From assembly GCA_965247095.1 (NCBI GenBank), contig OZ251997.1, forward strand, positions 2,595,689 through 2,659,688: a DNA stretch of 64,000 bases. The letters are read 5' to 3'. Position 1 is the stretch's first letter; each line of letters begins with the position of its first letter. Under the pieces are notes generated by a model. That model was not told the origin of the DNA. It did no database searches and saw nothing but the letters and a program-made list of their open reading frames with translations. Both the position numbers and the translations under genes were made by a program. Positions 19,865 through 50,474 of the stretch are shown piece by piece. The stretch comes from Candidatus Multivorans sp. (GTDB lineage: Bacteria; Acidobacteriota; Thermoanaerobaculia; Multivoradales; Multivoraceae).

Positions 19865-19948
19865 GGCCGCCGCGAGCCGGCCGCCACGGCCTGACCGGGC
19901 GCGGATGACGCAACAAGAGCAGCTATGACGCCGCAAGGAGGACGAACC

Positions 19949-25931: not shown

Positions 25932-26166
25932 TCACTGGCAAGCTCCGCGATTGACAGGAGTTATCCATGAGGCAATAGTCAGTGTGTGCTCGGCCAGGAG
26001 ACCGTGCCCGGGCGTCCCACGTTGGGCATCGCCGACCTCCACCGCCGATGGTACTCCTCGGGCGGAGAGAGGGTGATACCGTGCCCGGCCCCCGGAGGGG
26101 CACTGACCTGCCGGTCACACTCCAGAGGCGATGGACGTCCGGTGCCCCGGACCAGGGTTCGCGGCA

Positions 26167-27810: not shown

Positions 27811-27869
27811 CGGTGAGGTCGTGTACACGGCCGAATTGACTACCCGGCCGCGGGAGCACTGCTGCCGAT

Positions 27870-33016: not shown

Positions 33017-34389
33017 GTGAGCGTCGCGAAAGCAGGCTCGGTTGCTCTTGTCCTCGCGATGCTCCTCGCTTGCGCGTCCGACCTGGGCGAGACTTCCGCG
33101 CCGCCGGCCGGGATCCCCCACCCCGAACTCGCGGAACTCGAACCGCCCCTAGCCCGAGAACTCGAAGCCCGCCGGGCCGGACTCGACGCGCTGCTCGCCG
33201 ACGAAGCCGCGACCGCCAAGGAGCAGGCCCAGGCCTTCGGCGAGCTGGGCCGGCTCTACCAGGCCGAGGAGTCCCTGGCGCGCAGCGGGACGACCAGGGT
33301 CGCGATGGCCGACCCGCTGATGCACGAATTGACGACCCTGGCGATCGGCGCCTCGCCGCACCTGGCGCGGGGCAATGCCGCCGCGCGGGAGGGCCGGCTG
33401 GCGGAAGCGGAGTCCGCCTACCGGCAGGCTGTGGCAGCCGACGCCGCGAATCCGCGCGCCCATCAGAGCCTGGGTACCGTCCTGGTTCGCCGTGGCAATC
33501 CGCAGGCGGCCCTGGAGCACTTCGGCGCCGCCGTCGCGCTGGAGCCGGAGAATGCCCGCGCGCACTCGGACCTCGGCGTCCTGCTGGGAGAGCTCGGGCA
33601 GAACGACCGCGCCCTGGAACACCTGGGCCGCGCGGTCGAACTCGAGCCTGGGCTGGTGCAGGCACTGCTGAGTCTCGGCAACGTCCAGGCGCGTATCGGT
33701 CGCCTGGACGAATCGGAAGCGACCTACCGCCGGGTGCTCGAGAGCGACACCGGCAACGGAGATGCCCGGCTCGGACTGGGGGCCGTCCTGGCGCAGACCG
33801 GCGACTTCGAGCAGGCCGTCGTCGAGTTGCAGGAAGCGCTACGGCACGAGCCGGGCGACGAGCGGGCCTCCCGCATCCACTTCGGCCTCGCCGAAGCCCT
33901 GGTGCGCACCGGCCAGCTTGAGGAAGCCCTGGCGCACTACACCCGCGTCCGCGAAATCGATCCCGACCAGGGCCTCGCCTGGCTGCGCGAGGCGACGGTG
34001 CTGATGGGCCTCGAACGTTTCGCCGACGCCAAGGGCGTGCTCGAAGCGCGGCTGGCAGTTGCGCCCGCCGACGACCGCGCCGCTCACTCCCTGGCGAGAC
34101 TGCTCGCCGGCGCACCCGACCCGTCGCTCCGCGACGGTCCGCGGGCCCTGGCCATCGCGGGCGTCTGCTCGAAGCAGACAACGCCGCGCCCGAGGCCGAG
34201 ACCGCCGCGATGGCCCTGGCTGAAGCCGGCCGCTTCGAGGAGGCGATCGACATCCAGCGCACCCTGGTCCAGGACGCGCGGCGGCTGGAGCGAGCGGGCG
34301 AGGAGCGGCGTCTGGCCCGGAACCTGGACCGGTACGAGCGCGGCGAGGCGTGCTGTGCGCGGGTGGGGGATGTACTTCCGCCGTATTGA
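33017..34389 (+). CDS. TPR-repeat lipoprotein with apparent 1-nt frameshift near nt 34160
   Basis: Lipobox LLAC and multiple TPR units. After ...RALAIAG the homologous reading continues in another frame (RLLEADNAAPEAETAAMALAEAGRFEEAIDIQ...GDVLPPY, stop 34387-34389). The track ORF instead runs on to 34495. Confidence 0.7.
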
Positions 34390-34419
34390 GCGGACTGGCG
34401 GTCTACCATTGAGGAGATC

Positions 34420-34707
34420 ATGGCGATGCAGAACCCACCACATCCGGGCGGGATCGTCCGAAGGCAGTGCCTGGAGCCCCTGGGGCTGTCCGTGACGCGA
34501 GCCGCAGAAGGCCTGGGCGTCACCCGGCAGGCGCTCTCCGACCTGGTGAACGGTCATGCCGGAGTGTCGACGGAGATGGCGGTTCGCCTGTCGAAGGCGT
34601 TCGGCTCGAGTCCTGAGACTTGGCTCGGGAGGCAGATGGCCTACGATCTTTGGCAGGTCCGCGACCGTGCCGAGCAGATCACGGTCGAGCGCTTTGACGC
34701 GGCCTGA
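34420..34707 (+). CDS. higA: HigA-family antitoxin (XRE HTH), no HigB partner
   Basis: Sequence reads HPGGIVRRQCLEPLGLSVTRAAEGLGVTRQALSDLVNGHAGVSTEMAVRLSKAFGSSPETWL. GAGGAG RBS is present. Confidence 0.85.
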   Translation: MAMQNPPHPGGIVRRQCLEPLGLSVTRAAEGLGVTRQALSDLVNGHAGVSTEMAVRLSKAFGSSPETWLGRQMAYDLWQVRDRAEQITVERFDAA

Positions 34708-34770
34708 GTGCCGGCGATGCAAGTAAGTTCCAACTAGCAGCTAGGGGCTTGCGCGGCAGGACGATCTGAC

Positions 34771-34812
34771 CTGGGAACGCGGGCATCCTGCCCGCATCCG
34801 GCGCGAAGCGCC
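34771..34812 (+). repeat. REP-like hairpin element, copy 2 (compensatory stem change)
   Basis: CTGGGAACGCGGGCATCCTGCCCGCATCCGGCGCGAAGCGCC. The stem is GCGGGCA/TGCCCGC instead of GCGGGCG/CGCCCGC. Confidence 0.8.
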
Positions 34813-34835
34813 GGCCTCTGGGAGTTCTGCCGCGC

Positions 34836-35246
34836 CTAGGCCGATCTGAGGCCGGTATCGACGAACTCTCGTGGGGAGACGACGCGAACGTTCTGCCTGG
34901 CGCTGGCTGGGAAGTGTCTGGCGTTTCCGGTGACCAGATAGTCGGCCAGGGCGGCTGCCGCCACTTCCAGGAAGGGCTCGTCGTGGGGATCGGGAAGCCT
35001 GGCCGGCAAGGGCATTGGAGAGGTCAGTTCGCCACGGGCTTCGACTTGTAGCAGTAGCGCGCTGATGTCCTCTTCAGCGAGAGAGAATCTGGGTCGGCGC
35101 AGTACCTCGGCGTACTCGGCGAGGATTCGCGCGTCGTAGCAGAGGCTGAGGCTGCCTGCAGCGGTCAGCCCGACGATGGTGCCCGGTGGCCCGAAGGGCG
35201 ATAGCAAACCGGAGACGAGGACGTTCGTGTCGACGACGATTCTCAT
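34836..35246 (-). CDS. PIN-domain toxin
   Basis: Contains MRIVVDTNVLVSGLLSP, PDPHDEPFLEVAAAALADYLVTGNARHF. Confidence 0.85.
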   Translation of the reverse strand: MRIVVDTNVLVSGLLSPFGPPGTIVGLTAAGSLSLCYDARILAEYAEVLRRPRFSLAEEDISALLLQVEARGELTSPMPLPARLPDPHDEPFLEVAAAALADYLVTGNARHFPASARQNVRVVSPREFVDTGLRSA

Positions 35247-35530
35247 GCGCGGCGTCGGCGCCGCGCTTCATTGATCTCAGCGTTCACTTCGTCGAGGCTC
35301 CACTGATCAAGGCCCGCTTCACGTGCTCGGCGCTGCATATTGAGCACAGCCAACTGTGCTCGGGCTTGCCGAAGCGCCGTCAGCGTTGCTTCGAGGGTCG
35401 ACGCGGTCGCGGCAGAAAGGACGGCGACCGGCTTGCCGTTGGAAGTGACCACGAGGTCCTTCGCTTCCCCCAGTGATTCCCAGACTGCTGCGGAGCGAGT
35501 ACGTAAGTCACGGATGCTGACGAATTCCAT
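35243..35530 (-). CDS. Phd/YefM-type antitoxin
   Basis: MEFVSIRDLRTRSAAVWESLGEAKDLVVTSNGKPVAVL. GAGGG RBS is present. The stop overlaps the PIN gene start. Confidence 0.8.
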   Translation of the reverse strand: MEFVSIRDLRTRSAAVWESLGEAKDLVVTSNGKPVAVLSAATASTLEATLTALRQARAQLAVLNMQRRAREAGLDQWSLDEVNAEINEARRRRRA

Positions 35531-35549
35531 GGGTGCAACCCTCAAGGTT

Positions 35550-35582
35550 CACAATCGAGTACACGACGGTGGCACGATTGTG
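35550..35582. promoter_or_regulatory. Inverted repeat upstream of the phd/PIN operon (candidate operator)
   Basis: CACAATCG (35550-35557) and CGATTGTG (35575-35582) are separated by 17 nt and lie 20-50 nt upstream of the antitoxin start. Confidence 0.25.
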
Positions 35583-35590
35583 TCTTCTCG

Positions 35591-36643
35591 TCAAGACCGT
35601 GGACCCAGGGTTTCCCCCTCGCCCTGAACCAGCGTCTGATACTCGCCAGGGCGCACATCCGTCCAACGCTCCACCGCGCCGTCGGGCCAGCGGACTTCGA
35701 CGTGGCTGACGCCGGCGTTCTCGCCATCGCCGAGGCCGACGAGCACTCTGGGGTCGCGGGCTGACGCGTTGCTGCCGTCGGTGTGGACGTGGCGCCAGAT
35801 GGGCGGTGCGTCGGCGCGGTGGACCAGGACGTGAGCGCCCAAGGCGTCGCGGTTGTGGGCGACGAGCCGGAGGCCCAGCCACGGGCGGCCTTGGCCGACC
35901 TGGTTCAGCAACAGACGGGTCGGCGCGTTGCTGTTGACGACGACGACATCGAGGTCGCCGTCGTTGTCGACATCGCCGAACGCGGCGGCGCGGCTGACTT
36001 CGGCCGACTCGAAGACGACGCCAGCCTCGGCCGTGACCTCGCGGAAGGCGCCGTCGCCACCATTGCGGAGGAGCTGGTTCGCCTGCCGCAGCGGGTACGG
36101 ATCGCCGGCGCGGATCAGCGCGTCGATGCCGATCACGGCGCCGTTGACGGCGAGCACGTCGAGCCAACTGTCGTTGTCGTAGTCGATCCAGCCGATGCCG
36201 AAGGTGGTGAAGGGGAGGCTGGGGGGCCCGAGTTGCGACGCCGCCGACTCGTCGCGGAACAGGCCGGCGCCGTCGTTGTCGAAGTCGAGCAGGGCCGCGC
36301 CGTAGTAGAGGGTCAGGGCGCTGCCGACGAAGGCCGTCGAGTACGGGATCGCCATGGACATGCGCGTCGCCGGCGCCAGCATGTCGTGCACCTCGATGGT
36401 GAAGCGCAGCGCCTGGTAGGCGAAGACGGCAAGGAAGGCGGCCGAGCTGAGCGCGACCACGGCGCCGATCCAGCGCTGCACCTTGGGCGGAGTCCTGTCG
36501 ACCAGGAACCGGAGCGCGAAGTGGGTGCCGGTCTTCATCGCGTAGGCGGCCGAGAGAGCCGCCAGCCACATGAGGAGAAACCGGGCCAGCTCTTCCGACC
36601 AGGACAGCCTGGTCCGCCACCCGCTCGAGGTGGCGGTGTGCAC
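35591..36643 (-). pseudogene. Chimeric ORF: TRAP small-permease (DctQ) fragment fused in frame to the C-terminal half of a CRTAC1/ASPIC-UnbV protein
   Basis: The N-part WSEELARFLLMWLAALSAAYAMKTGTHFALRFLVDR is DctQ-like and lacks its own N-terminus. The C-part DFDNDG...DVDNDGDLDVVVVNSN...RPWLGLRLV...NRDALGAHV is paralogous to 16733..18598. Confidence 0.6.
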
Positions 36644-36666
36644 GTTGCTGGTCGCCCGTCAATGCA

Positions 36667-37731
36667 CTAGTGCCCGCCCCAGATGTCGCCCACCACGAAG
36701 CCGTTGGGGAACGGGTCCTCCGGGTCGAGGACGTACTGGGCGAAGCCGGTAATCCACGCGGTGCCCGCCAGGGTCGGCACCGCGGCGGCGTAGTCGCCGA
36801 CCTGCGTCTCCCGAATCATGCGGCCCGTGAACGTCGTGCCCAGAATCCCCTCGTGGACGAAGTCCTGGCCGAGCGGCAGCTCGCCCTTGGCCCACATCGC
36901 CGCCATCTTGGCGCAGGTGCCGGTGCCGCAAGGTGAGCGGTCAAGCGCCCCGGTCCAGGTCAGCGGCTTGTTCCAGTCGAGCGTGCCGGTCGACACGATG
37001 ACCGTGTTGCGCCGGTCGGCGCCTGATGTCAGCGGCGGCGCGGAGAGCTGGCCGATCGTGACGCCGCGGATCTGCGGGTTCAGCGGGTGGACGGGCGCGG
37101 GAAGCTGCTCCTGGCAGGCGGCCTTGATCATCTCGCCGACCCGGGCGGCGTCGGCGGCTTCCTCGGGCGCCAGGGTGAGGCCGACCTGATCCGCGTCGGC
37201 GATGACGTAGAACATGCCGCCGTAGGCGACGTCGACCGTGACCTTGCCGAGTTCCGGCACGTCGAGTTCGGCGTCGAGATGGACGGCGAAGGCCGGCACG
37301 TTCTTGAACTCGACCCGCTTCACCTTGCCCCGCTCGACCTCGGCGCGCACTTGGATCAGGCCGGCGGGCGACTCCAGGGTGAGTTCGGTGAGCGGCTCCG
37401 TCGACGCCACCATCCCGGTCTCGATCAGCACGGTAGCGACGGCGATCGTGTTCGTGCCCGACATGCCGGGGTACTCGACCTGCTCCATGATCACGTAGCC
37501 GGCGACCGCATCGGGATGGGTGGCCGGGAGGATCAGGTTGCAGTTCGCCGCCGGATAGCCGCGCGGCTCGCGCAGCATGCGCAGCCGGAGTTCGTCGGCC
37601 TCGGTTTCGAGGTAGCGCATCTTCTCGAACATCGTCGATCCGGGGACGTCGAGGACGCCGCCGACGATCACCCGTCCCGGCTCGCCGCAGACGTGGGTGT
37701 CGACGGCGTGGATGACGTTGGAGACGCGCAT
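36667..37731 (-). CDS. Proline racemase / 4-hydroxyproline epimerase family protein
   Basis: Contains MRVSNVIHAVDTHVCGEPGRVIVGG, MSGTNTIAVATVL and DRSPCGTGTCAKMA. Confidence 0.85.
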   Translation of the reverse strand: MRVSNVIHAVDTHVCGEPGRVIVGGVLDVPGSTMFEKMRYLETEADELRLRMLREPRGYPAANCNLILPATHPDAVAGYVIMEQVEYPGMSGTNTIAVATVLIETGMVASTEPLTELTLESPAGLIQVRAEVERGKVKRVEFKNVPAFAVHLDAELDVPELGKVTVDVAYGGMFYVIADADQVGLTLAPEEAADAARVGEMIKAACQEQLPAPVHPLNPQIRGVTIGQLSAPPLTSGADRRNTVIVSTGTLDWNKPLTWTGALDRSPCGTGTCAKMAAMWAKGELPLGQDFVHEGILGTTFTGRMIRETQVGDYAAAVPTLAGTAWITGFAQYVLDPEDPFPNGFVVGDIWGGH

Positions 37732-37736
37732 CGGAT

Positions 37737-38936
37737 CTAACTCCCGGCTGGTGGAAGAACCGTCATCTTCATCCAGTCCGCCGTGTTGTGAAAGTCCGCC
37801 CGGGAGTTCTCCGGATAGTCGGACTCGCTCAGGTAGCGGCCGGCGAGCACGCCCATCGCCATCGGCGCCCAGGTAATCACGCCCACGCCGAGGCGCTGGC
37901 ACATCGGGATCAGCTCGTTCTCGATCCGGCGGTCGAGCAGGTTGTAGGGCGGTTGCTCGCTGACGAAGCGGGCGTAGCCCTTCAGTTCGCTCGTCATCAC
38001 GGCTTCGGCGACCATCCAGGCCGGGTGGGTCGAGCAGCCGATGTAGCGGATCTTGCCGGTCCGCACCAGGTCGTCCAGAGCTCTCAGGATCTCGTCGAAC
38101 GGGATCTCGGGCGACGGGCGGTGCAGTTGATAGAGGTCGATGTAGTCGGTCTGCAACCTTCGGAGCGACGCCTCGCAGGCGCGGATCAGGTTGAGGCGCG
38201 AGTGGCCGTACTCGTTGGGACCGATGCTGGCGGTGTAGTCCGTAACGCTCTCGCCGACGACTCGCCGCCCGAACGTGGTGTTGAAGAACTCGAGGTCGTC
38301 CTGGATGAACTGGAAGCCCTGCAGTCCCGTTTCGAGAAAGGCCATGTGGTCCGTGCAGCAGGTGTTGCCGGGCACGATCCAGGACATCCCCACATCGTGG
38401 AAGGGCGCCATCCAGGCCTCGAAGATCGGTCGCGCCCTGTCGTTGCCCTGCAGGTAGATGCCTCGGAAGCGGCCGTACCAGTCGACGTTGAAGTACACGG
38501 ACAGGTTCGCGTGCGCGGCCGGCTTCTCGGGCGACTCGGGATCGCCGAAGTGCTCGCGCACGTAGACCCGGGAGCCGAGCAGCCCGCTCTCTTCCGCGCC
38601 CCAGAGCGCTGCTCGGATCGTGCGCCGGGGCTTGAGGTCGAGGGCCCGCAGGAGCCGCATCGCCTCCATCACGATCGCACTGCCCGCCGCGTTGTCGGTG
38701 GCAGCCGTCGTAGGAGGGGAGTTCGCGTACCGGGGACCGTAGACGTCGGTCAGGACGCGGGCGAACTCCATCACCTGGGAGCGCCGAAAGCCCTCGTCGC
38801 GCAGGTCGGCTACGACGGTCTCGGCGCCAGCGGTCGGCTTGCCGTCGCCGTGTTCCTCGGCGCGAGACTCGTTCCCGCCGAGCAGCGCAACGAGCGCGAG
38901 GAGTGCCGGCATCCGGGTGACACCGCGTGCGATCAT
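37737..38936 (-). pseudogene. Chimeric ORF: M28 peptidase fragments fused in frame to aldo/keto reductase fragments
   Basis: A signal peptide is followed by [20 protein letters not shown]...[13 protein letters not shown]...CCTDHMAF (M28). Then comes [31 protein letters not shown]...[13 protein letters not shown] (AKR). This lacks about 87 aa that the paralog 24004..25050 carries between SRAD and FHNT. Confidence 0.6.
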
Positions 38937-38974
38937 CAGCAGCCTGGCACTATACAGCCGTCCCGGGCACACGG

Positions 38975-39006
38975 ATGGCACGCGGGCGTCTCGCCCGCAT
39001 CCGGCG
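38975..39006 (+). repeat. REP-like hairpin element, copy 3
   Basis: GGCACGCGGGCGTCTCGCCCGCATCCGGCGG, with the stem at 38982-38998. Confidence 0.75.
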
Positions 39007-39017
39007 GCGACTACACT

Positions 39018-39500
39018 GCCGCAGTGTCGGCCATCGATTTCGTCCAGCGGATGATCTCGGCCGATTCGGGCCGCTCGGCCAAGCGCGGCTGCTATCTGGC
39101 CGCGGGGCTGACGCTGGTGGTCGGGCTCGCCGTCTCCCTGATCGGGCTGTCGGCGTTCTACTTCGGCCGGGACCCGGGTTCCTCGCTGCTGATCGACCTC
39201 GCCTTGAGCGATCTGCCGGGCCTGGTGGGCGGCGGGATCCTGCTCGGTCTGTTCTGGCGCAAGGCGAACACTCCGGGGGCACTGGCCGGTGTGATTGCCG
39301 GTAGCGTCGCCCGAATGACTCTCCACTTCGCGGTGGCCGATGCGTACCGCGGCCTCGACACCCTGCTGGCGCCGGTCTTCAGCCTGGCCGCCATGGTGAC
39401 CGTGTCGCTGCTGACCCAGGCCGCGTATCGACCGCGGCACGACGAGTTGAAGCGCGTGCCGTCCGAGCGCGATCTTGTGGCTGGCCTGGACGGCGCCTAG
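39018..39500 (+). pseudogene. Sodium:solute symporter (SSF) C-terminal fragment
   Basis: The tail of track ORF 37788..39500 reads [30 protein letters not shown]...[23 protein letters not shown]. There is no N-terminal half and no start. Confidence 0.55.
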
Positions 39501-39535
39501 GAGTCCGCGAGGCGGAGCGATGGGCCACTCTGGAC

Positions 39536-39569
39536 CTGGGAACGCGGGCGTCTCGCCCGCATCCGGCGC
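39536..39569 (+). repeat. REP-like hairpin element, copy 4
   Basis: CTGGGAACGCGGGCGTCTCGCCCGCATCCGGCGC, with the stem at 39544-39560. It abuts the IS630 insertion. Confidence 0.8.
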
Positions 39570-39571
39570 TA

Positions 39572-40708
39572 GTGTAGTGTCTCCGATATGGGTTGACAGT
39601 TTCGGGCAAGTTCGTCAGTATGCCGTTCATGTGGGAACCAGCGGAACGACTTCACATCGAAGAGAGGGATCGAGCGCTTCTCAAGAAATGGGTAGAGGCG
39701 CCGACGACGACGCAACGCACGGTCCGGCGTAGCCGGATCGTGCTCGCTGCGGCGGAGGGCACGGCCAATCGGGCGATTGCGGCGAAACTCGGCGTTTCGC
39801 GGCCCACGGTGCTGCTGTGGCGTCGTCGGTTCGCGGAGGACGGACCTTCGGGGCTGACCAGGGATCGTCCCCGCGGTTGCGGAAAGCCGCCGCTCTCGGA
39901 GTCGGTCGTGCGTAAAGTGATCGAAGCGACGCTGCACGAGAAGCCGCCCGGTCAGACCCACTGGAGCGTGCGTTCGATGGCTCGGGCCCAGGGCATCAGT
40001 CCGGCGGCGGTCCAGCGCATCTGGGTGGCGCACGGGCTGAAGCCCCATCTGGTCAAGACGTTCAAGCTGAGCAACGACCCCAGGTTCGTGGAAAAGCTGC
40101 GGGACGTTGTGGGCCTGTACCGGAATCCGCCCGAGAACGCGCTTGTGCTGTGCGTGGACGAGAAGAGCCAGATCCAGGCTCTGGACCGGACCCAGCCGGG
40201 CTTGCCGCTCAAGCGCGGCCGCGCGGGAACGATGACCCACGACTACAAGCGCAACGGGACGACGACGTTGTTCGCTGCGCTGAACGTGTTGGAGGGCACG
40301 GTGATCGCGGAGTGCATGGGCCGGCAGCGCCACCAGGAGTTTCTCCGTTTCCTCAAGCGTCTCGACCGTGAGATCCCGAAGCATCTCGACCTGCACCTGA
40401 TCCTGGACAACTACCAGACCCACAAACACGACGCCGTGCGCGCATGGCTGGAGCGAAAGCCTCGCTTCCACTTCCATTTCATTCCCACTTCGTCGCCCTG
40501 GCTCAACCTGGTCGAACGCTGGCTGGGCGGTCTGACCACGAAGGCGATCCGGCGCGGTGCATTCCAGAGCGTCAACGACCTCGTAAAGACCATCTACGAC
40601 TACGTGGAGCACAGCAACGAAAACTCCCGGCCGTTCGTCTGGACGGCCACCGCCGACAGCATCATCGCAAAGGTTACACGTGGTAAAGCCATGTTGGAGA
40701 CAGTACAC
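39572..40708 (+). mobile_element. IS630-family insertion sequence
   Basis: Terminal inverted repeats GTGTAGTGTCTCCGATATGG and CCATGTTGGAGACAGTACAC, flanked by TA on both sides (39570-71 and 40709-10). Confidence 0.85.
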
Positions 40709-40711
40709 TAG
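39620..40711 (+). CDS. IS630-family DDE transposase
   Basis: Contains VLCVDEKSQIQALDR, YKRNGTTTLFAAL, LILDNYQTHKH and PTSSPWLNLVERW. The stop TAG is completed by the flanking TA. An alternative TTG start lies at 39593. Confidence 0.85.
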   Translation: MPFMWEPAERLHIEERDRALLKKWVEAPTTTQRTVRRSRIVLAAAEGTANRAIAAKLGVSRPTVLLWRRRFAEDGPSGLTRDRPRGCGKPPLSESVVRKVIEATLHEKPPGQTHWSVRSMARAQGISPAAVQRIWVAHGLKPHLVKTFKLSNDPRFVEKLRDVVGLYRNPPENALVLCVDEKSQIQALDRTQPGLPLKRGRAGTMTHDYKRNGTTTLFAALNVLEGTVIAECMGRQRHQEFLRFLKRLDREIPKHLDLHLILDNYQTHKHDAVRAWLERKPRFHFHFIPTSSPWLNLVERWLGGLTTKAIRRGAFQSVNDLVKTIYDYVEHSNENSRPFVWTATADSIIAKVTRGKAMLETVH

Positions 40712-41080
40712 CAGCAGCCTCGACGAACAGGTTCGGCGCCTGGAGCGCCTGCTCCGACGCGAGCTCGAGGCGGAGGGCCTCAAGGTGGAGGAAGCTGTCG
40801 AGAAGGGCGAACGGGTGCTGGTCATCGGCGAAATGAGGATCTTCCCCCGGCGTCTTCTCGAAGGCCAACTCACGGCAGCCGATACAAGCGACTCGAGCAC
40901 CGTCGACCTCGATTGGCTCGCCGCCGCCCACCGCAGTTACTTCCGCAACCTGCGCCGGTTCCATCCGAGTCTGGTCGTTCGGTAGCAGCGTGCGCGGCAG
41001 GAAGAATCGGCGTACCCCATGTTCTGCGGCGCACGCTTGCATGGAACAAACCCCTCGTCCTGGCCGGCCCTTCGTGCCTA

Positions 41081-41108
41081 ATGCGGGCGAGACGCCCGCG
41101 TTCCCCAG
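41081..41108 (-). repeat. REP-like hairpin element, copy 5 (inside tandem unit 1)
   Basis: ATGCGGGCGAGACGCCCGCGTTCCCCAG is the reverse complement of the REP core. The stem lies at 41083-41099. Confidence 0.75.
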
Positions 41109-41224
41109 GGCGGACCGAAGTAGCGACCACGCTCTTACGGTGTTCCCTGCGCGACAGCGCAGCGATACCGCTGTGGGTACTTGCATGGAACAAACCCCTC
41201 GTCCTGGCCGGCCCTTCGTGCCTA

Positions 41225-41252
41225 ATGCGGGCGAGACGCCCGCGTTCCCCAG
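41225..41252 (-). repeat. REP-like hairpin element, copy 6 (inside tandem unit 2)
   Basis: Same sequence as copy 5, located 144 nt downstream. Confidence 0.75.
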
Positions 41253-41410
41253 GGCGGACCGAAGTAGCGACCACGCTCTTACGGTGTTCCCTGCGCGACA
41301 GCGCAGCGATACCGCTGTGGGTACTTGCATGGAACAAGCCCTGTTCCCTGTGCGTCAGCGCGGCGCGGACGCCGCGACTCGACTCCTAGCCGGCGTACAC
41401 TTGGCGGCCG

Positions 41411-42460
41411 ATGCGGAACGCCTTGGCTCTGGGCCGTCGATCGATCCTGCTAGCGCTCGCGGCGGCCGCGGCCGCGGTGGGCTGCGGCGGTGACGGCCGG
41501 ACGCCGGTGGTCGTCTACTCGCCGCACGGCCGGGATCTTCTGACCGTCGTCGAGCAGGCTTACGAGCAGGCCCGTCCCGATGTCGATGTCCGTTGGCTCG
41601 ACATGGGTTCGCAGGAGGTCTACGACCGCATCCGCTCGGAGCGTGCGAACCCGCAGGCGGACGTGTGGTTCGGCGGCCCGGCGACGATCCTGGCCCGCGG
41701 CGCGGCGGAGGGCCTGCTGGCGCCGTTCGAGCCCTCGTGGGCCGGCGCTCTCGATGCCGCCGACCGGCATCCTGAAGGTCTCTACTACACGCTCTACCAG
41801 ACGCCGACGATCATCGTCTACAACCGCGACGCGATCAGCGCCGAGGAGGCGCCGGCCGACTGGGACGATCTGCTGGACGAGCGCTGGCAGGACGAGATCG
41901 TGATCCGCGACCCGCTCGCCAGCGGCACGATGCGGACGATCTTCGGCAAGATCCTGGCCGACTCGGTGGTCGAGACCGGCAGCACGGAGGCCGGCTTCGA
42001 CTGGTTGCGACGGCTCGACGGACAGACCCGGGAGTACGTGCACAGTCCGGCGGTGCTGCACGAGAAGCTGACCCGCCAGGAGGGTCTGCTCACGCTCTGG
42101 GAAATGACGGACACGCTGTCCCTGATCGACCGGGGCGCGCCCGTGGCGTACCGGTTCCCGGAGAGCGGAACGGCCGTGATCCAGGACTCGGTGGGCGTCG
42201 TCGCGGGCGCCCGCCACCCGGACGCGGCGGCGGCCTTCGTCGAGTGGCTGGGCTCGCCCGAAGCCCTGGGTCTGGCGGTGCGCGAGGCGTTCCGCCTGCC
42301 GGCCCGGGGCGACCTGGACGCGGCGGAGCTCGCGCCCTGGGTGGCGGACGTGCAGTCGCGGCTGCGCCGGGCCGAGGTCGACTGGCAGATGATCGAGGAG
42401 AACGGCAGCGAGTGGATGGCGCAGTGGGACCGGGCCGTTCGCGGCCAGGGCGGAGGATGA
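41411..42460 (+). CDS. ABC transporter periplasmic substrate-binding protein (family 1, Fe3+/thiamine-like)
   Basis: Lipoprotein-like signal AAAAAAVGCGG, followed by VVVYSPHG and ADVWFGGPA. Confidence 0.85.
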   Translation: MRNALALGRRSILLALAAAAAAVGCGGDGRTPVVVYSPHGRDLLTVVEQAYEQARPDVDVRWLDMGSQEVYDRIRSERANPQADVWFGGPATILARGAAEGLLAPFEPSWAGALDAADRHPEGLYYTLYQTPTIIVYNRDAISAEEAPADWDDLLDERWQDEIVIRDPLASGTMRTIFGKILADSVVETGSTEAGFDWLRRLDGQTREYVHSPAVLHEKLTRQEGLLTLWEMTDTLSLIDRGAPVAYRFPESGTAVIQDSVGVVAGARHPDAAAAFVEWLGSPEALGLAVREAFRLPARGDLDAAELAPWVADVQSRLRRAEVDWQMIEENGSEWMAQWDRAVRGQGGG

Positions 42461-43599
42461 GTCTGACGGCGGGCGTCTCCGTCCGGTTCGACGACGTCTT
42501 CAAGTCGTTCGACGACACGGTCGTCCTCGCCGGCGTCTCGCTCACCGTTGAACCAGGTGAGATCTTCGCCCTGCTGGGGCCGAGCGGCAGCGGCAAGACG
42601 ACCATGCTGCGGCTGCTGGCGGGCTTCGAGCAGCTCGACCGCGGCCGCCTGCTGATCGCGGACGAGGCGGTCGAGCACCTGCCGCCCGCCCGCCGCGGCG
42701 TCGGCATGTTGTTCCAGAGCTACGCGCTCTTCCCGCATCTGAGCGTGGCGGAGAACGTGGCCTTCGGTCTCAAGGTCCGCGGCGGCGGGCAGGGCGAGGT
42801 GCAGGGGCGGGTGGCCGAGATGCTCGAGCTCGTGCGCCTCGGCGGTTTCGAGGCGCGCCGCATCGCCGAGCTCTCGGGCGGCCAGCAGCAGCGGGTCGCC
42901 CTGGCCCGGGCATTGGCGCCGCGGCCGCGGGTGCTGCTGCTGGACGAGCCGCTATCGAACCTCGATCCGGCGCTGCGTGAGGAGACCCGCGCAGATCTGC
43001 GCCGTGCGGTCAAGCAGACCGGCATCACGACGGTGCTGGTCACCCACGAACAGGAGGAGGCGTTCGAGCTCGGCGAACGGATCGGGGTTCTCAACGGCGG
43101 CCGCCTGGAGCAGGTCGCGGCGCCCGCCGAGCTGTACCAGGATCCGGCTTCGCGCTTTGTGGCGACGTTCGTCGGCCGCTGCTCCGTGCTGCCGGGGGTG
43201 GTCGAAGCCGGGGGCGACGGCGGCGCGCTCGACGTTCGGATCGAATCGCAGGGGGCGCCGCAGGTCTGGCGTTGCCGGGGCGGCGACGGGATCGGGGCCG
43301 GCGACCGGGTCGATGTCTGCGTTCGCCCGGAATCCCTGGAGCTGGCGACGGGCGCGGGCGCCGGGCTGGCGGGCGAGATCGCCGCGGAGCGCTACACCGG
43401 CAGCAACAGCTTCTACACGGTTCGGTTGACCACGCCGTCGGGCGGGTCGGGGGCCGCGTCGCGTTCGGTCACCGTCGAGGTGGCGATGCCCGGCACCGCG
43501 GCCGGTCTGACCGGCGCCTGCGTGGTGCGACCGCTTCCGGAGGAGCCGCCGTGCGTTTTCGCGGCCGGGGCAGCCGGGGCAACCGGGGCCGAACCTTGA
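42457..43599 (+). CDS. ABC transporter ATP-binding protein
   Basis: Contains GPSGSGKTT, LSGGQQQRVALARAL and LLLDEPLSNLD. The ATG overlaps the upstream stop (ATGA). Confidence 0.9.
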   Translation: MSLTAGVSVRFDDVFKSFDDTVVLAGVSLTVEPGEIFALLGPSGSGKTTMLRLLAGFEQLDRGRLLIADEAVEHLPPARRGVGMLFQSYALFPHLSVAENVAFGLKVRGGGQGEVQGRVAEMLELVRLGGFEARRIAELSGGQQQRVALARALAPRPRVLLLDEPLSNLDPALREETRADLRRAVKQTGITTVLVTHEQEEAFELGERIGVLNGGRLEQVAAPAELYQDPASRFVATFVGRCSVLPGVVEAGGDGGALDVRIESQGAPQVWRCRGGDGIGAGDRVDVCVRPESLELATGAGAGLAGEIAAERYTGSNSFYTVRLTTPSGGSGAASRSVTVEVAMPGTAAGLTGACVVRPLPEEPPCVFAAGAAGATGAEP

Positions 43600-45284
43600 A
43601 CTCGGCCAGTCGCGGCCGCGGCTCGTTGCAGCTCCGGTCGCTGATGCCGTGGCTGCTGCTGGCGTTCCTGGTCTGGCTGGTCGGCTATCCGCTGCTCGTG
43701 GTGGCGGCCGAGGCGTTCGGCATCGGCGGTCTGGAGGGGGACGGTCCGACGACGGAGGCGTTCCGCTCCTTCTTCAGCCGGGCGGACGAGTGGAACGCGA
43801 TGTGGCGGACGCTGTGGATCTCCGTGCTGTCCACGCTCGCCGCGGCCGCGGTCGGGGTGCCGCTCGGCTTCCTGTTCGAGCGCAACGAGATTCCGGGCCG
43901 GCGTCTTCTCGGCGCCCTGGTCGCGCTGCCGGTGGCGCTACCGCCGCTGGTGGGCGTCATCGCGTTTCTCTTCCTCTACGGCGAGAGCGGTCTCGCCGCG
44001 CGGGGGCTGCAGACCCTGGGTCTCGACGTGTCGTGGCGGCTGACCGGGCCGGCGGCCATCCTCCTGGTCCACGCGTACTCGATGTACGTGTACTTCTACC
44101 TGTTCACCCGGGCGGGACTCTCCGGGCAGGACGGCGCCGCCATCGAGGCCGCCCAGAGCCTGGGCGCGAAGCGGTCGCAGATCCTGTTCCGGGTCACCCT
44201 GCCGCGGCTGCGGCCGGCCCTGGCGGGCGCCACGCTGCTCACCTTCATGACCTCGCTCGGCTCGTTCTCGGCCCCCTACATCTTCGGCGGCGGCTTCCGC
44301 GTGATGACCACGCAGATCGTCGCCTCCAAGCTGAACGGGGAGCTGCGCATGGCCTACGTCGAGACGACCATGCTGGCGCTGATGGCGTTCGGCGCCCTGC
44401 TCCTGCTGCGCCGGATCGATCCGGGCCTGGACCTGGCGTCGGGCGCGCGTGGCACGCCGCCGGCGCGGCGGCGCCTGCACAGCCGGGGCGGCCGCGTTGC
44501 CGCCGCAGCCGGCGGCTGGATCCTCGCCGGGGTCTTGCTCCTGCCGCATGCGACGTTGATCCTGATGTCGCTTGTGCCGCCGAACACCTGGACCGTGGAG
44601 GCGTTCCCGCCGGTCCTGGGCCTCGTCAACTACGGCGATCTGCTGTCGTCGGCGGAACGGCTGCGGCCGGCCCTGAACTCGCTCTGGATGGCCGCCGCGG
44701 CGACGCTGGCGGCGGTGGTCGTGGGCGTCGTGACGGCGCGCCTGTCGCTCCGGCGCGGCGGTCTGCCCGGGCGCGCACTGGAGACGATGATGACCCTGCC
44801 CTGGGCGATTCCGGGGACGGTCTTCGCCCTCGCCCTGGCCGCGGCGATGAGCGTCAACGCTCCCTGGGTCGGTCGCTTCGTGCTGGTGGGCACGATCTGG
44901 ATCCTGCCGCTGGCCTACCTGGTGCGCTCCCTGCCGCTGACCGGCCGCTCGGTGTTCGCGGCCCTGCGGCAGCTCGACCCGCGCCTGGAGGAGGCCGCGG
45001 CGAGTCTCGGCGCCGGCGCGTTGAGAACGGTGCTGCAGATCGTGCTCCCCCTGCTGCGGCCGGCGGTGATCGCGGGCGCCGGCCTTGCCTTCATCACCAT
45101 GCTGGGCGACTTCGTGACCTCGATCGTGCTCTACACCTACGACACCCGCCCGATCTCGATCGAGATCCAGTCCAGCCTGCGGATCCAGGAGACCGGTATT
45201 GCCGCCGCCTACGGCGTGCTGCTCATGCTCTTGAGCGCGGCCGCATTCATCGCCTGGAACGACCGCGCCGGCGGGCGGCTCTGA
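43596..45284 (+). CDS. ABC transporter permease (two fused transmembrane domains, FbpB-like)
   Basis: Hydrophobic throughout, with two EAA-like loops (IEAAQSLGAKRSQ and LEEAAASLGAGAL). The TTG start overlaps the ATPase stop. An alternative ATG lies at 43644. Confidence 0.85.
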   Translation: MNSASRGRGSLQLRSLMPWLLLAFLVWLVGYPLLVVAAEAFGIGGLEGDGPTTEAFRSFFSRADEWNAMWRTLWISVLSTLAAAAVGVPLGFLFERNEIPGRRLLGALVALPVALPPLVGVIAFLFLYGESGLAARGLQTLGLDVSWRLTGPAAILLVHAYSMYVYFYLFTRAGLSGQDGAAIEAAQSLGAKRSQILFRVTLPRLRPALAGATLLTFMTSLGSFSAPYIFGGGFRVMTTQIVASKLNGELRMAYVETTMLALMAFGALLLLRRIDPGLDLASGARGTPPARRRLHSRGGRVAAAAGGWILAGVLLLPHATLILMSLVPPNTWTVEAFPPVLGLVNYGDLLSSAERLRPALNSLWMAAAATLAAVVVGVVTARLSLRRGGLPGRALETMMTLPWAIPGTVFALALAAAMSVNAPWVGRFVLVGTIWILPLAYLVRSLPLTGRSVFAALRQLDPRLEEAAASLGAGALRTVLQIVLPLLRPAVIAGAGLAFITMLGDFVTSIVLYTYDTRPISIEIQSSLRIQETGIAAAYGVLLMLLSAAAFIAWNDRAGGRL

Positions 45285-45303
45285 GCGCGGGCCGCCTCCT
45301 GCT

Positions 45304-46479
45304 GTGCCGCGACTGATCGACCATCGCCTGGGGGCGCTGATGGCGGTCGCGTTCGTGTGCACGCTGGGCGAGTTCCTAGTCGTAGCACTTCTCCCGTTCT
45401 ACGCGGAGCGATACGGCGCGAGTCCCTTCGAAGTCGGCGCTCTGGTGTCCGCCTTCGCCCTGGCGGCGATGGCGACCGCACCGCTCTGGGGCCGGCTCGC
45501 CGACCGCTCGGGGCGCAGGCCGGCGCTGCTGCTCGGCCTTCTGGTGTCGGCTGTGGGCTTCGCCCTTTTCGGCGTGGCGCAGTCGATCGAGTTGCTGCTG
45601 CTGAGCCGCCTGGTGCAGGGTGTGGGTGGCGGCACGGTGCCGGTGGTGTTCGCCTACATCGCCGACTCGGTGACCGGCGAGCGGCGCGCCGAGGGTGTCG
45701 GGTGGGTGACCGCCGTCACCAGCTCAGCGGCGATGATCGGCCCGGCCGTGGGCAGTTTCGCGGGCCAGGTCCATCCGGCCGGGCCCGGAGCGGTGGCCGC
45801 GGCGCTCAGCGTGGCGGCCGCGGTGTTCGCGCACTTCTGGCTGCCGGAGTCGCGGCCGCGAGGGACGCCGAGCGGCGAGGGGGAGGAGGCGCGGTACTCG
45901 ATCCTGGGGGCCGTCGGCCGGGTAGCCGCACAGCCGCTTCGCCCGCTCAATCTCCTGATCTGGATCTACGCCGCCGGGCAAATCGGCATGGCGGGGATGA
46001 CGGCGATCATCGGCCTCTACCTGGGGCGTCGTTTCGGAGTGGACGAGTCGAACATCGGGTTGTTCTTCTTCTATCTGGGCGGCCTGTCCATCGTCTTCCG
46101 CGTTCTCGTTCTGGGGCGGGCGGTCCGTCGCTGGGGCGAGGTCAACGTCTTGCGCACCGGCGCCTTGAGCTTCGGCGCCGGGCTGATTGCGATCCCGTTC
46201 GCCACCGGGCTATGGACGCTCGGGGCGGCGATCTTCCTCGTCCCGTTGGGCACTTCGCTGCTGTTCCCGTGCACGACCTCGCAGGTCTCGAAGCGCGCCC
46301 CCGGAAGCGGCGTCGTGGGGCAGGTGCTCGGCGTGCAACAGGCCTACGGCAACGCCAGCAAGATCGCCGCGCCGCTCCTTGCGGGCTATCTGTTCCAGGA
46401 GCTGTCGCCGGGCGCGCCGTTCGTGGTCATCGGCGCAGTGCTGCTCGTTGCTGCCGTGGCGTCGTTCCGGTTGCGGTGA
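45304..46479 (+). CDS. MFS transporter
   Basis: 12-TM-like profile with the GRLADRSGRRP motif. Confidence 0.85.
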   Translation: MPRLIDHRLGALMAVAFVCTLGEFLVVALLPFYAERYGASPFEVGALVSAFALAAMATAPLWGRLADRSGRRPALLLGLLVSAVGFALFGVAQSIELLLLSRLVQGVGGGTVPVVFAYIADSVTGERRAEGVGWVTAVTSSAAMIGPAVGSFAGQVHPAGPGAVAAALSVAAAVFAHFWLPESRPRGTPSGEGEEARYSILGAVGRVAAQPLRPLNLLIWIYAAGQIGMAGMTAIIGLYLGRRFGVDESNIGLFFFYLGGLSIVFRVLVLGRAVRRWGEVNVLRTGALSFGAGLIAIPFATGLWTLGAAIFLVPLGTSLLFPCTTSQVSKRAPGSGVVGQVLGVQQAYGNASKIAAPLLAGYLFQELSPGAPFVVIGAVLLVAAVASFRLR

Positions 46480-46720
46480 TCGCTGCGCTCTACCCGGACG
46501 TCGGGTCGCATTCAGTGCTGCCGTTTATCCATTGACCAGACCCACGCAGAGACAACCGGCGAAGCCCGCCGGAGAAAGTCGCCACAGTCCGGGAATGTCG
46601 AGGCCGATGGCCGCGGGCCGGGTCGGATCCGGCTGCCTCGTCAGGGCCACTGGAACCAGCGCGAGGGTGAGGAGGATCGCCGTGCTGAACAGCAGGGCGG
46701 CAGTTGCCTGAGCATCGCGG

Positions 46721-47203
46721 TCATCTCTTGTTGCGGCGGCCCGCTTCAAGAGCCTGGAGGACCTCCTCCGGGGTTCGTTCGGCAGAGGCGAACGGATCGA
46801 TCACCCGAACTTCGCCGAAAGTCTGGCCGTGCTGGAGATCCTCGGTGAGGAGGACCGGACATCCACACGATTGAGCGGCCGCCACGATCAACGCGTCCCA
46901 CCAGGACAGCGAAGTGGCCTGCTCGAGAATCCACGCTCGTTCCATGATGGCGAGGTTGACCGGGACCGGCTGCCACGCGGCCAGAGCCCGGACGATCTGG
47001 CGAGCTTTGGCGCCGCCCATGCCCGGCTTCAGCTTGCGGGTAAGGGTCGCGTACAGCTCCTGCAAGACCTGCACACTCAGGCGGCCGGAGTGGCTGCGCC
47101 ATAGATACGAGTACCAGTCTTCGGCACGCGACTGCTTCGCCGGGTCGGACGAGTCGTGCCGGTAGACGAGTACGTTCGTGTCAACGAAGACCGGGCCGGT
47201 CAT
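46721..47203 (-). CDS. PIN-domain toxin (VapC-like)
   Basis: Contains VFVDTNVLVYRHD, WWDALIVAAAQSCGCPVLLTEDLQHG. Confidence 0.85.
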   Translation of the reverse strand: MTGPVFVDTNVLVYRHDSSDPAKQSRAEDWYSYLWRSHSGRLSVQVLQELYATLTRKLKPGMGGAKARQIVRALAAWQPVPVNLAIMERAWILEQATSLSWWDALIVAAAQSCGCPVLLTEDLQHGQTFGEVRVIDPFASAERTPEEVLQALEAGRRNKR

Positions 47204-47423
47204 GGAGCGAGTCTCGCGAGGGGTAAGGCTGGCCCCTCTGCTTCAGCCTCTCGGGCTGAATCGCGAGGGCTCGTTCCATGGCGACGTCGTAACGATCCTC
47301 CTGGCGCCTCATCCGTTGAACCAGGTCTGCCAACCAGCGGGAAACGCTGCGCTCGTTCTCCGCAGCGCGGACCCGGACCCACCGGGCGTCCTCTTCGGGC
47401 AGGGTGATCGTGACGTTCTTCAC
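47181..47423 (-). CDS. Ribbon-helix-helix antitoxin (VapB-like)
   Basis: MKNVTITLPEEDARWVRVRAAENERSVSRWLADLV. GTG start. It overlaps the PIN gene by 23 nt. Confidence 0.75.
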   Translation of the reverse strand: MKNVTITLPEEDARWVRVRAAENERSVSRWLADLVQRMRRQEDRYDVAMERALAIQPERLKQRGQPYPSRDSLHDRPGLR

Positions 47424-47440
47424 GGCACGAGACTAGGGAA

Positions 47441-47455
47441 ACACGAAGTTCGTGT
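47441..47455. promoter_or_regulatory. Perfect 15-bp palindrome upstream of the RHH/PIN operon (candidate operator)
   Basis: ACACGAAGTTCGTGT lies 18-32 nt upstream of the antitoxin GTG. Confidence 0.3.
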
Positions 47456-47574
47456 CAATGAGTTCCGGAGTGTCTTCGGTGGTGGCCCCGCGACATGCGA
47501 AAAGGGCGTGGCCAGCGGCCGCGCCCTTGGAAGACTTGGTAGCGGGGGCAGGATTTGAACCTGCGAGCCTTGGG
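47456..47574 (-). repeat. tRNA-fMet-derived repeat: distal partial unit, hairpin, and the 3' part of the unit split by IS21
   Basis: Contains GTGTCTTCGGTGGTGGCCCCGCG (47470-47492, 5' acceptor-like), a hairpin at 47502-47528, and TGGTAGCGGGGGCAGGATTTGAACCTGCGAGCCTTGGG (47537-47574). Confidence 0.75.
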
Positions 47575-47687
47575 TGGAGGCATGGCTCGGAAACTGAGCC
47601 ACCCAACGCTCGGAAAGTGATCCACCCTCGGCCCTGACACCGGTAGCTTGGTCTTGTTCAGTAGACCAACGCGCTCGGAGGAAGGAC

Positions 47688-49129
47688 TTGCTGAGGATGG
47701 ATCAGGTTCATGTTATTCGGCACCAGGTGCTGGTGGAGGGTCGGAGCCAGCGCTCGGTGGCTCGGGAGCACGGTGTGAGCCGCAACACGGTGCGCAAGTA
47801 CCTGGATCAGAGCGAGCCGCGGCGGGTGGAGAGCAGGCCGCGGCGGCGGCTGGTGACGGAGCGTGTGGCGCCTCGTCTGGAGGAGTTGCTGAGGACGTGG
47901 TCTCGCCGGACGACGGCGAAGCAGCGTCTGACGGCGACGCGTCTGCATCGCCAGTTGCTGGAGGATGGCTACGAGGTCTGGATCACGACGATTCGCAGCT
48001 ACGTTCGGGAGTGGAAGCGTCAGCGCCAGGAGACGTTCATTCCGCTGGTGCACCGTGCCGGCGAGTGCGGCCAGGTGGACTTCTTCGAGGTGACGGTGGA
48101 GGAGGACGGTGTGGCGCACCGGGTGTGGAAGTTCCTGCTGCACCTGCCGTACTCAGGCCGTTCGTTCGTGTGGCTGTACGACCGCTGCGACCAGGTGGCG
48201 TTCCTCGACGGCCACGTGCGGGCGTTCGCGCACTTCGGCGGCGTGCCGCTGCGTCTGGTCTACGACAATCTGAGTGCGGCGGTGCGTCGGCGGGTGGGCG
48301 GCGAGCGTCAGTTGACGGCTCGATTCCAGGCGCTGGTGAGCCACTACCTGTTCGAGCCTTGCTTCGCCCGCCCCGGCGAGGGGCACGACAAGGGCAGCGT
48401 GGAGTCGCGCGGCAAGGGAATCCGTCTGGCGCACATGAGTCCGGTGCCTCAAGGCCGCACCCTGGAGGAGATCGCACGGGCGTGCTGGCTTCGGTCGACG
48501 CGGCACACAGTCAGCGCGCCCGGTGGCAGGAGGAGCAGGCAGCTCTGCGCGAGCTGCCGCCGACCGCGTTCGAGGCAAGGAAGCTCAGGATCGTGCGGGT
48601 GTCGCGCCAGGCGACGGTGCAGTTGGGCGGCGCGATCTACTCGGTTCCCTCGCGGTGGAAGAGCCTCCAGGTCCATGCCCGCGTCGGTACGGGCGACATC
48701 GTCTTCACCTGTCGCGACGCGGAGTACCGCTGCGCTCTGGTGCGGCCGGGACAGCGCCTGGTGCGCTACGCGCACTACTTCGAGGAGCTGTCCCGGAAGC
48801 CTCAGGCGGTGCGACAGGTGGCTCCGGAGCTGCTCGCGGAGCTTGGCCCGGCCTATCGCAAGCTATGGAGAATGCTGGAGTTGCGGCACGGCGCGCTGGA
48901 GACGGCGCGGCTCTTCGCCAAGCTGTTGAGCGTGGTCACAGACCACGGCAGCGAGGAGGTAGCCGCCGCACTCGAGGAGGCCCTGACCGCCGGTCGCTTC
49001 GACCTTCTGGGACTCGCCCTGCGGAGTCCCGCCTCCAAGATCGAGGTGCCGGAGCCGCTCCGCCGCCACGACATCGAGAGCGCTCGCGCCGCCGACTTCG
49101 ACGTGCTGCTTCAGGAGGCGGCATCGTGA
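47688..49129 (+). CDS. istA: IS21 IstA transposase, split by an apparent frameshift near 48470-48485
   Basis: Frame 1 (track 47688..48929) is good up to ...PVPQGRTLEEI. The homologous continuation LASVDAAHSQRARWQEEQAALRELPP...VLLQEAAS is in the frame of track ORF 47648..49129. Confidence 0.8.

Positions 49130-50397: not shown

Positions 50398-50474
<77 letters not shown>

Follow-up and report, generated by a model that had tools for sequence, protein, structure and literature searches.

In bacterial pseudogenes, the bias of small deletions toward multiples of three nucleotides (3n) has been explained by the 3n spacing of microhomologies and not by selection (Danneels et al. 2018, Genome Biol Evol, PMC6054270). 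Here, we describe a locus where a related form of decay is seen on a larger scale. It lies in a stretch of 64,000 nucleotides (nt) from Candidatus Multivorans sp., an uncultured member of the Acidobacteriota (assembly GCA_965247095.1, contig OZ251997.1, positions 2,595,689 to 2,659,688), hereafter called the window, and centers on an open reading frame (ORF) of 399 amino acids (aa) at 37737-38936 on the minus strand that combines pieces of an M28 peptidase with pieces of an aldo/keto reductase (AKR). As in the pseudogenes of that study, the relics appear neutral and have functional orthologs in relatives, and their deletions are flanked by microhomology, preserve the frame more often than expected, and occur where direct repeats tend to share a codon phase. 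The earlier work, however, dealt with deletions of at most 15 nt (k-mers of 2-6, intervals up to 20 nt), whereas those found here span 189-1687 nt, with one of several kilobases (kb). Furthermore, the bias at our locus reaches fusions of neighboring genes, small insertions and deletions (indels) are nearly absent, and the in-frame excess lies above the prediction of a repeat-phase model.

Other described systems resemble parts of the locus. When two neighboring co-directional genes are fused by an intergenic deletion, the first loses its 3' end and the second its 5' end along with the spacer between them, which leaves one ORF with two Pfam families, as is the case here. Unlike fusion enzymes that arise in this way, both parents of the M28-AKR ORF are gutted internally and lack catalytic residues, so that the product is a relic and not bifunctional. 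In-frame deletions are also engineered in bacterial genetics so that downstream genes of an operon remain expressed. These "non-polar" deletions remove most of a gene while keeping its start, stop, and frame; a symporter gene beside our ORF has likewise kept its start with three codons and its native stop, but its deletions are natural and there are several per gene. Finally, the locus recalls template-switch or microhomology rearrangements at quasi-palindromes, with a 50-nt inversion between two deletions near a DctQ gene and filler bases at other junctions. Unlike in that class generally, the inversion occurs at a single junction, and the mechanism is read from sequence alone.

The M28-AKR ORF is best understood as a pseudogene relic of a conserved gene cluster that arose by recent, repeated deletions in situ, that is, by ordinary gene decay. 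We put the probability of this reading at about 0.9. The original prediction that M28 and AKR pieces share one frame was borne out by Pfam searches and an ORF check, with Peptidase_M28 matching aa 76-214 (profile positions 27-162 of 193) and Aldo_ket_red matching aa 238-382 (75-216 of 291). The ORF and the intact M28 protein align at their N-termini, and mapping of breakpoints against intact M28 and AKR homologs placed the end of each piece at a defined position inside the intact orthologs. The features concerned are as follows.

37737-38936, minus strand: M28-AKR relic fusion ORF, 399 aa, M28 remnants joined in frame to AKR remnants; read as a pseudogene
38700-38936, minus strand: M28 N-terminal piece (relic aa 1-78, intact aa 1-78), ending at the 786-nt deletion junction at 38700-38707
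38271-38707, minus strand: M28 C-proximal piece (relic aa 79-222, intact aa 345-488), with TDNAAGS, EE, and TDH motifs kept
37796-38271, minus strand: AKR middle piece (relic aa 223-380, intact aa 84-241); M28/AKR junction at 38271, 431 nt deleted, 1-nt overlap
37737-37799, minus strand: AKR C-terminal piece (relic aa 381-399, intact aa 332-350) with native stop; 270-nt deletion junction at 37796-37799
36667-37731, minus strand: intact proline-racemase-family gene (ProRac), 354 aa, starting 5 nt past the stop of the relic ORF
39024-39500, plus strand: relic sodium:solute symporter (SSF) ORF, 158 codons, made of aa 1-4 (native GTG start), 245-316, and 402-483 with native stop
24004-25050, minus strand: paralogous AKR gene, intact (348 aa) and conserved here in relatives too; did not give rise to the AKR piece

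Relatives of the organism carry the cluster in complete form. With ProRac as the query, a search of species-representative genomes located the cluster in Candidatus Multivorans and in metagenome-assembled genomes of related Thermoanaerobaculia (Acidobacteriota), and seven close species representatives, including L003-L005, L015, L016, and L018, were compared base by base. In all seven, the genes for SSF, M28, AKR, ProRac, SDR, and DctQMP are intact and in the same order, and the window breaks at identical positions against every one of them. Several of the relatives, with the isolate names SB06xx_bin, COS1_bin, and RHO1_bin, are probably bins from sponge microbiomes. The reference L002 (also L006, OZ244152.1), a circular sequence of 4.98 Mb that is ~92% identical, has SSF (483 aa) on the minus strand, followed on the plus strand by M28 (538 aa), AKR (350 aa), ProRac (354 aa), SDR, DctQ, DctM, and DctP. 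A protein search with the relic ORF returned a 99%-identical 399-aa protein in another assembly along with hundreds of intact M28 (~537 aa) and AKR (~346 aa) proteins, and several contigs had a match to both. With intact syntenic orthologs in close relatives and breakpoints that fall inside them, the ORF has the marks of an in situ deletion pseudogene. In our reading of the alignments, the mosaic is the remains of two adjacent genes and involves no assembly from distant loci. The region had been described as accessory, which does not fit with a cluster of which each of the seven close representatives has an intact copy.

The junctions can be placed to the base (positions left/right of each deletion are in L002 coordinates). 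Inside M28, 786 nt (262 codons) were deleted in frame at 10249/11029 between copies of the 7-nt microhomology CGGCGCC. This junction also has a compensated -1/+1 indel pair, with 1 nt missing from a run of C located 14 nt upstream and one T gained at the junction itself, from which five codons read PTTAA instead of SYDGA; the pair is also found in L001, a second assembly of the locus. At the passage from M28 to AKR (11464/11895), 431 nt were deleted with a 1-nt overlap, and the frame is kept because 431 belongs to the residue class required to join both frames. Inside AKR (12370/12637), the deletion of 270 nt (90 codons) is in frame with 1-4 nt of microhomology. The divergent SSF gene has two junctions of the same kind, both in frame. 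One removed 255 nt (85 codons) at 8737/8983 with a 10-nt microhomology, CCGAGCAGGA (window 39238-39247), taking out ~85 aa near SSF aa 317-401. The other removed 720 nt (240 codons) at 9201/9914 with a 7-8 nt microhomology, CGATGGC (window 39029-39036), taking out SSF aa 5-244 while sparing the first four codons, GTG start included. With that start retained and two internal deletions, the symporter does not fit its earlier description as a headless C-terminal fragment of 160 aa.

None of the three damaged genes would be expected to encode a working protein. An active M28 peptidase has a complete co-catalytic zinc site, with His/Asp ligands in the N-terminal half, a Glu-Glu motif, and a C-terminal His, and in this family these ligands are taken to lie in the GGHLD, TDNAAGS, EE, and TDH motifs. 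The relatives all read MIGGHLD...GATDNAAGS; in the relic, the GGHLD His (the first metal ligand), which lies 9 codons upstream of the kept part, is deleted. Intact aa 79-344 and 489-538 (the last 50 residues) are missing, 312 of 538 residues being gone, and the zinc site is incomplete even though the TDNAAGS, EE, and TDH motifs are still present. An active AKR has an Asp-Tyr-Lys-His tetrad on a complete (alpha/beta)8 barrel. The AKR remnant begins at aa 84, past the DTGEVY (Asp/Tyr) and ATKV (Lys) motifs of the intact protein P0018, and has kept only the LHRP histidine of the tetrad; aa 1-83 and 242-331 (90 barrel residues) are gone. Because the first zinc His of M28 and the Asp, Tyr, and Lys of AKR are missing, we regard the ORF as a pseudogene, the product of which, judged by its residues, cannot be an active peptidase or reductase. 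A functional sodium:solute symporter has a full set of transmembrane segments in about 480 aa, of which the SSF relic has 158 of 483 codons and a sub-threshold Pfam match to the last 66 profile positions.

Patterns of substitution are in line with a recent loss. Of the relic's window-specific substitutions, 8, 9, and 8 affect codon positions 1, 2, and 3, and 19 are non-synonymous versus 6 synonymous; these are low numbers, however, and the variable signal-peptide region accounts for 10 of the non-synonymous ones. In ProRac, the corresponding numbers are 0 and 2, and this gene is under purifying selection. The ratio of non-synonymous to synonymous divergence between the relic and its relatives is ~0.15 (0.14-0.16), the same as among the relatives themselves, most of the divergence predating the deletions. 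Since this ratio is unchanged, the deletions are recent relative to the ~25% synonymous divergence. A scan of 36500-39700 with consensus promoters, which do not cover the promoter types of this phylum, yielded no promoter-like site, and one terminator-like site was found there, which is at chance level.

Other assemblies provide copies of the locus and a relative order of events. L001 (27 kb, 4.9x coverage) is 99.6% identical to window 33716-48987 and carries the same relic ORF, SSF fragment, and ProRac gene, a DctQ/ASPIC fusion described below, and all five junctions; within the relic, 4 non-synonymous and 4 synonymous changes separate it from the window. The exact ORF of the window is also on record on a 4.617-Mb NCBI/ENA contig. 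The genome L088 (4.45 Mb, circular, 24x) is 96-97.6% identical to the window and has only the 270-nt AKR junction in common with it, identical to the base. Its own deletions (972 and 225 nt in SSF, 189 and 820 nt in M28, M28-to-AKR at 11498/12091, and SDR to DctP) differ from those of the window and are not nested with them. L087 (~86% identical) lacks the AKR deletion and has deletions of its own in SSF, M28, M28-AKR, and SDR; its out-of-frame M28 relic has a stop that overlaps the start of the AKR relic (ATGA). Each of the three lineages has at least five large deletions (189-972 nt) in ~6 kb. ProRac and the ABC-transporter operon downstream of SSF are intact in all of them. The most economical history has the AKR deletion arising before the lineages of the window and L088 split, followed by parallel dismantling. 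As a separate observation, L001 has a ~60-nt partial duplication (AKR end and ProRac start) at 11200-11266 between the relic ORF and ProRac, past which identity to the window is 98.3% versus 99.6% upstream; it looks like the scar of a recombination import.

These comparisons suggest a sequence of steps. The ancestor would have had the SSF symporter on one strand and M28, AKR, the ProRac-family enzyme, SDR, and TRAP DctQMP on the other. The 270-nt AKR deletion, common to the sister lineage, probably came first, after which selection on the cluster would have relaxed. Further deletions, presumably RecA independent, then formed between short direct repeats or with filler bases; they took out roughly 190-1000 nt each, except for one that removed several kb. 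Their pattern suggests that they arose by replication slippage, template switching, or microhomology-mediated end joining. In the lineage of the window, deletions of 786, 431, and 270 nt left what remained of M28 and AKR joined as one open frame ending at the native AKR stop, and those of 720 and 255 nt shrank the divergent SSF gene to 158 codons. Much of the in-frame excess is a mutational by-product, as short intragenic repeats in a genome rich in GC at third codon positions (GC3) favor the same codon phase; what is left of it may reflect selection for translatable relics that prevent polarity downstream.

The same deletion phenomenon accounts for the other mosaics of the window, the high density of which had been foreseen. 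The genes involved are amidohydrolase, hyp288/hyp485, DUF885, a ThuA-like gene, and DctQ/ASPIC. Between ~11 and 47 kb, the window is collinear with its relatives, as seen with two further reference loci, L083 and L084.

18597-20566: relic run (amidohydrolase, HemolysinCabind, hyp288/hyp485)
amidohydrolase (in this run): 654-nt internal deletion, in frame; 5' end and two upstream genes also lost
HemolysinCabind (in this run): headless fragment, in phase with an intact HD gene; junction outside the frame scoring
hyp288/hyp485 fusion (in this run): 1687 nt deleted, 10-nt microhomology, in frame
25133-25874: DUF885, 839-nt internal deletion, 1-nt overlap; the only out-of-frame junction found in the window
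ThuA-like relic: best matches 55-61% identical
36301-36655, minus strand: DctQ remnant, with an inverted 50-nt DctQ piece at 36606-36655, then DctQ codons at 36301-36607; SDR gene and DctQ start deleted
35591-36300, minus strand: FG-GAP/UnbV_ASPIC C-terminal remnant (229 aa), fused in frame to the DctQ remnant

At 36606-36655, the 5' segment of DctQ is inverted around a natural quasi-palindrome, CCGCCAYC-CCTCGAGG-TGGCGG, between deletions of 798 and 55 nt, and the ProRac/DctQ junction has the appearance of a template-switch-like complex rearrangement. The DctQ/ASPIC fusion, which spans 35591-36643 and takes an N-terminal part from DctQ, lacks the four genes that stand between its parts in relatives (DctM, DctP, a CarboxypepD_reg outer-membrane protein, and a sulfatase-TPR gene); its junction is placed approximately, the sole ASPIC reference (L086) being 84% identical. 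The window (36299-36301) and L087 (12871-12873) lose DctQ homology at the same base (L002 14990, TACTACG|GC) and continue with different sequence, which could be an old shared breakpoint, a hotspot, or a transferred allele. Beside the DUF885 relic, 2 kb of lower GC (58-63%) at 25875-27873, with three ORFs lacking Pfam matches, stand in place of 138 nt of the relatives that include the DUF885 5' end; this is probably an inserted mobile or defense cassette. Toward the end of the window, repeats of ~110-165 nt (47462-47575, 50155-50454) enclose genes for a Mu-like (rve) transposase and a PIN-domain protein; this region, probably a mobile element, is absent from L002, where synteny stops at 46484.

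Repetitive extragenic palindrome (REP)-like sequences and an insertion sequence (IS) of the IS630 family lie close to the relics.

38971-39007, no strand assigned: REP-like palindrome between the divergent SSF and M28 genes, away from the deletion junctions
39533-39569, no strand assigned: REP-like element 3' of the SSF stop, occupying the same position in L002
39572-40708, plus strand: IS630-family insertion with a DDE_3 transposase (39593-40711), inverted repeats GTGTAsTGTCTCC, and TA target duplication

The copy at 38971-39007 had been predicted beside the relic ORF. A 25-mer of the element occurs seven times in the window at three or fewer mismatches, against none expected by chance, and the copies conform to the REP class in being short imperfect palindromes, numerous, mostly intergenic, and present in both orientations. 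The element has a 7-bp GC stem and a 3-nt loop, with a fold no more stable than that of shuffled sequences (z = -0.65). The hairpin between SSF and M28 is variable, with a different one in L003 and L004 and none in L002 and L005. A perfect copy at 15934-15958 lies inside a long cytochrome c554/TPR ORF, and at the same place in L083 (~4797), meaning either that the ORF is really two genes or that the palindrome is tolerated in coding sequence. Another copy lies in a 144-nt unit that is perfectly duplicated in tandem at 41036-41323; by our reading of overlapping BLAST hits, L001 apparently has a single unit. The IS630 copy, by its transposase, inverted repeats, and TA duplication, is a typical IS630/Tc1-mariner element and a clean, separate insertion directly beside a REP copy. 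Its site is unoccupied in L002 and L088, the empty site in L088 reading CGCTAGCAG. L001 has at least three IS630 copies within 21 kb, which suggests a recent expansion.

We scored the independent frame-relevant junctions of three lineages (window, L088, and L087) in a survey made at the DNA level, independently of ORF calling; the ThuA-like relic, for which there is no close intact reference, stood outside the tally. Frame is preserved at 15 of 19 junctions, where the naive expectation of one in three would give ~6 (P = 6e-5), so the in-frame bias that was originally noted holds when ORF calls play no part. The in-frame to out-of-frame ratio of 1:2 that had been proposed as the null is, however, too low. 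We measured the phase of exact direct repeats at intragenic distances of 60-2000 nt in these genomes, and the share in the same codon phase rose from 30% with no match to 34% at 1 nt, 48% at 4 nt, 64% at 7 nt, and 74% at 10 nt. Local similarity in 16- or 24-nt windows predicted phase even more strongly than exact repeats. Deletions guided by microhomology should thus preserve the frame in much more than a third of cases, and the neutral expectation in this GC3-rich genome is ~45-55%. Conditioned on microhomology or local similarity, 8.7-10 in-frame junctions are expected (P = 0.002-0.01 for the 15 seen). When junctions that had drawn attention to the loci are dropped, 10 of 13 are in frame against 6.3 expected (P = 0.03). 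At junctions with 7 nt or more of microhomology, six of six are in frame versus 4.1 expected, which is not significant, while at those with 3 nt or less the count is 9 of 13 versus 4.6 (P = 0.013). Mutational bias accounts for a large part of the in-frame pattern, but probably not for all of it.

Some of our observations sit uneasily with ordinary decay. The in-frame excess, both in the full and in the reduced tally, stands above the similarity-conditioned expectation and is concentrated in junctions with little microhomology. In addition, two independent M28 deletions have compensating indels nearby, which neutral decay does not predict, and ~2 kb of relic sequence contains almost no small indels, an odd spectrum for neutral decay.

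The original prediction offered three explanations for the mosaics, namely repeated deletion in a decaying region, REP- or IS-associated rearrangement, and assembly artefact, and it is the first that stands, since the pieces are in situ remnants of a conserved gene order. Recombination between repeated elements could have been suspected from the seven REP-like copies in the window and the IS630 copies of L001, and also from the REP copy that lies 22 nt from the 720-nt SSF junction and the IS630 that abuts a REP copy beside the SSF relic. We nevertheless consider it highly unlikely to have made the mosaic, as microhomology (1-10 nt) or some filler bases, and never REP or IS sequence, are seen at the junctions, the intergenic REP-like hairpin varies among relatives, and the IS630 is a simple TA-duplicating insertion in an otherwise collinear site. 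Less probable still is a functional, newly formed, secreted M28-AKR chimera kept by selection. Such a protein would explain why 399 codons are open between a native N-terminus and a native stop, why they are 99% conserved in two assemblies, and why a frameshift at one junction is compensated; but the catalytic residues of both parents are gone, the lineage-specific substitutions look neutral, the few differences between the window and L001 are equally split between non-synonymous and synonymous, and the sister lineages L088 and L087 hold different, more degraded versions. We give even less weight to a chimeric contig in which the junctions are metagenomic mis-joins. The related records are metagenome-assembled genomes, making it probable that the window is one too, and coverage of L001 is low (~4.9x). 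Yet all five junctions recur in L001 despite 0.4% single-nucleotide differences and structural differences elsewhere, and the AKR junction recurs in the circular L088 at 24x; microhomology at the junctions is typical of biological deletions, and a mis-join would not keep gene order and orientation over 36 kb. The least credible of these alternatives is that the AKR segment was patched in from the paralog at 24004-25050 by ectopic recombination. The two are indeed paralogous, as was originally proposed, with 65% protein identity (paralog aa 90-245) and 78% DNA identity over 351 nt, and the segment resumes at ~aa 336 of the paralog after a jump. A skip of ~87 aa had been claimed at that point; it exists, but measures 90 aa (270 nt) against the intact in situ orthologs. 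The AKR piece, however, is 92-95% identical at the nucleotide level to the M28-adjacent AKR of relatives, and the paralog is still in place at its own locus there.

It is possible, though on balance doubtful, that the frame was kept by selection because in-frame relics hold ribosomes on the transcript and so spare the downstream ProRac and ABC-transporter genes from Rho-type polarity. The excess over the similarity-conditioned expectation is what would be anticipated, as are the in-frame state of all five independent SSF deletions above an operon that is intact in three lineages, the 5 nt that separate the stop of the relic ORF from the ProRac ATG, the overlap of stop and start (ATGA) in L087, and the compensated indels at two M28 junctions. 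On the other hand, the junctions are few and the loci were partly picked for their open frames. In-frame junctions also occur where there is no intact downstream gene (hyp288/485 and DctQ/ASPIC), while DUF885, the sole out-of-frame junction of the window, does have one. A rough count gives ~13 of 16 in frame upstream of intact genes versus ~3 of 5 elsewhere, which are not distinguishable, and in the window an IS630 now sits between the SSF relic and its operon. A broader and somewhat more tentative version holds that operon decay is shaped by selection for natural non-polar deletions, such that only those tend to fix that let translation of the relic continue as far as the next intact gene. 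If so, the relics would be in-frame, ribosome-covered spacers that shield ProRac and the ABC-transporter genes from transcriptional polarity, and the in-frame excess, the compensated M28 indels, and the dominance of large deletions over frameshifting indels would be jointly explained. Literature on the genus, on pseudogenes of sponge symbionts, and on polarity and in-frame pseudogenes yielded nothing directly relevant besides PMC6054270.

As an object, then, the M28-AKR ORF appears to be essentially ordinary, the product of gene decay by deletion, but it has consequences for how such genomes are read. Annotation should flag a two-family "fusion protein" of this kind as a pseudogene and not as a new multidomain enzyme, and the SSF, amidohydrolase, DctQ/ASPIC, and hyp288/485 ORFs of the window should be treated likewise. 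For genome evolution, the locus offers an unusually clean, time-ordered dismantling of a conserved catabolic cluster, with one common first hit followed by parallel large deletions. More generally, a neutral in-frame baseline of ~50% and not 33% in GC3-rich genomes matters to any test of selection that relies on in-frame ratios. Only the modest excess over this figure might open up something new, and it provides a concrete, testable case for polarity-driven constraint on gene loss.

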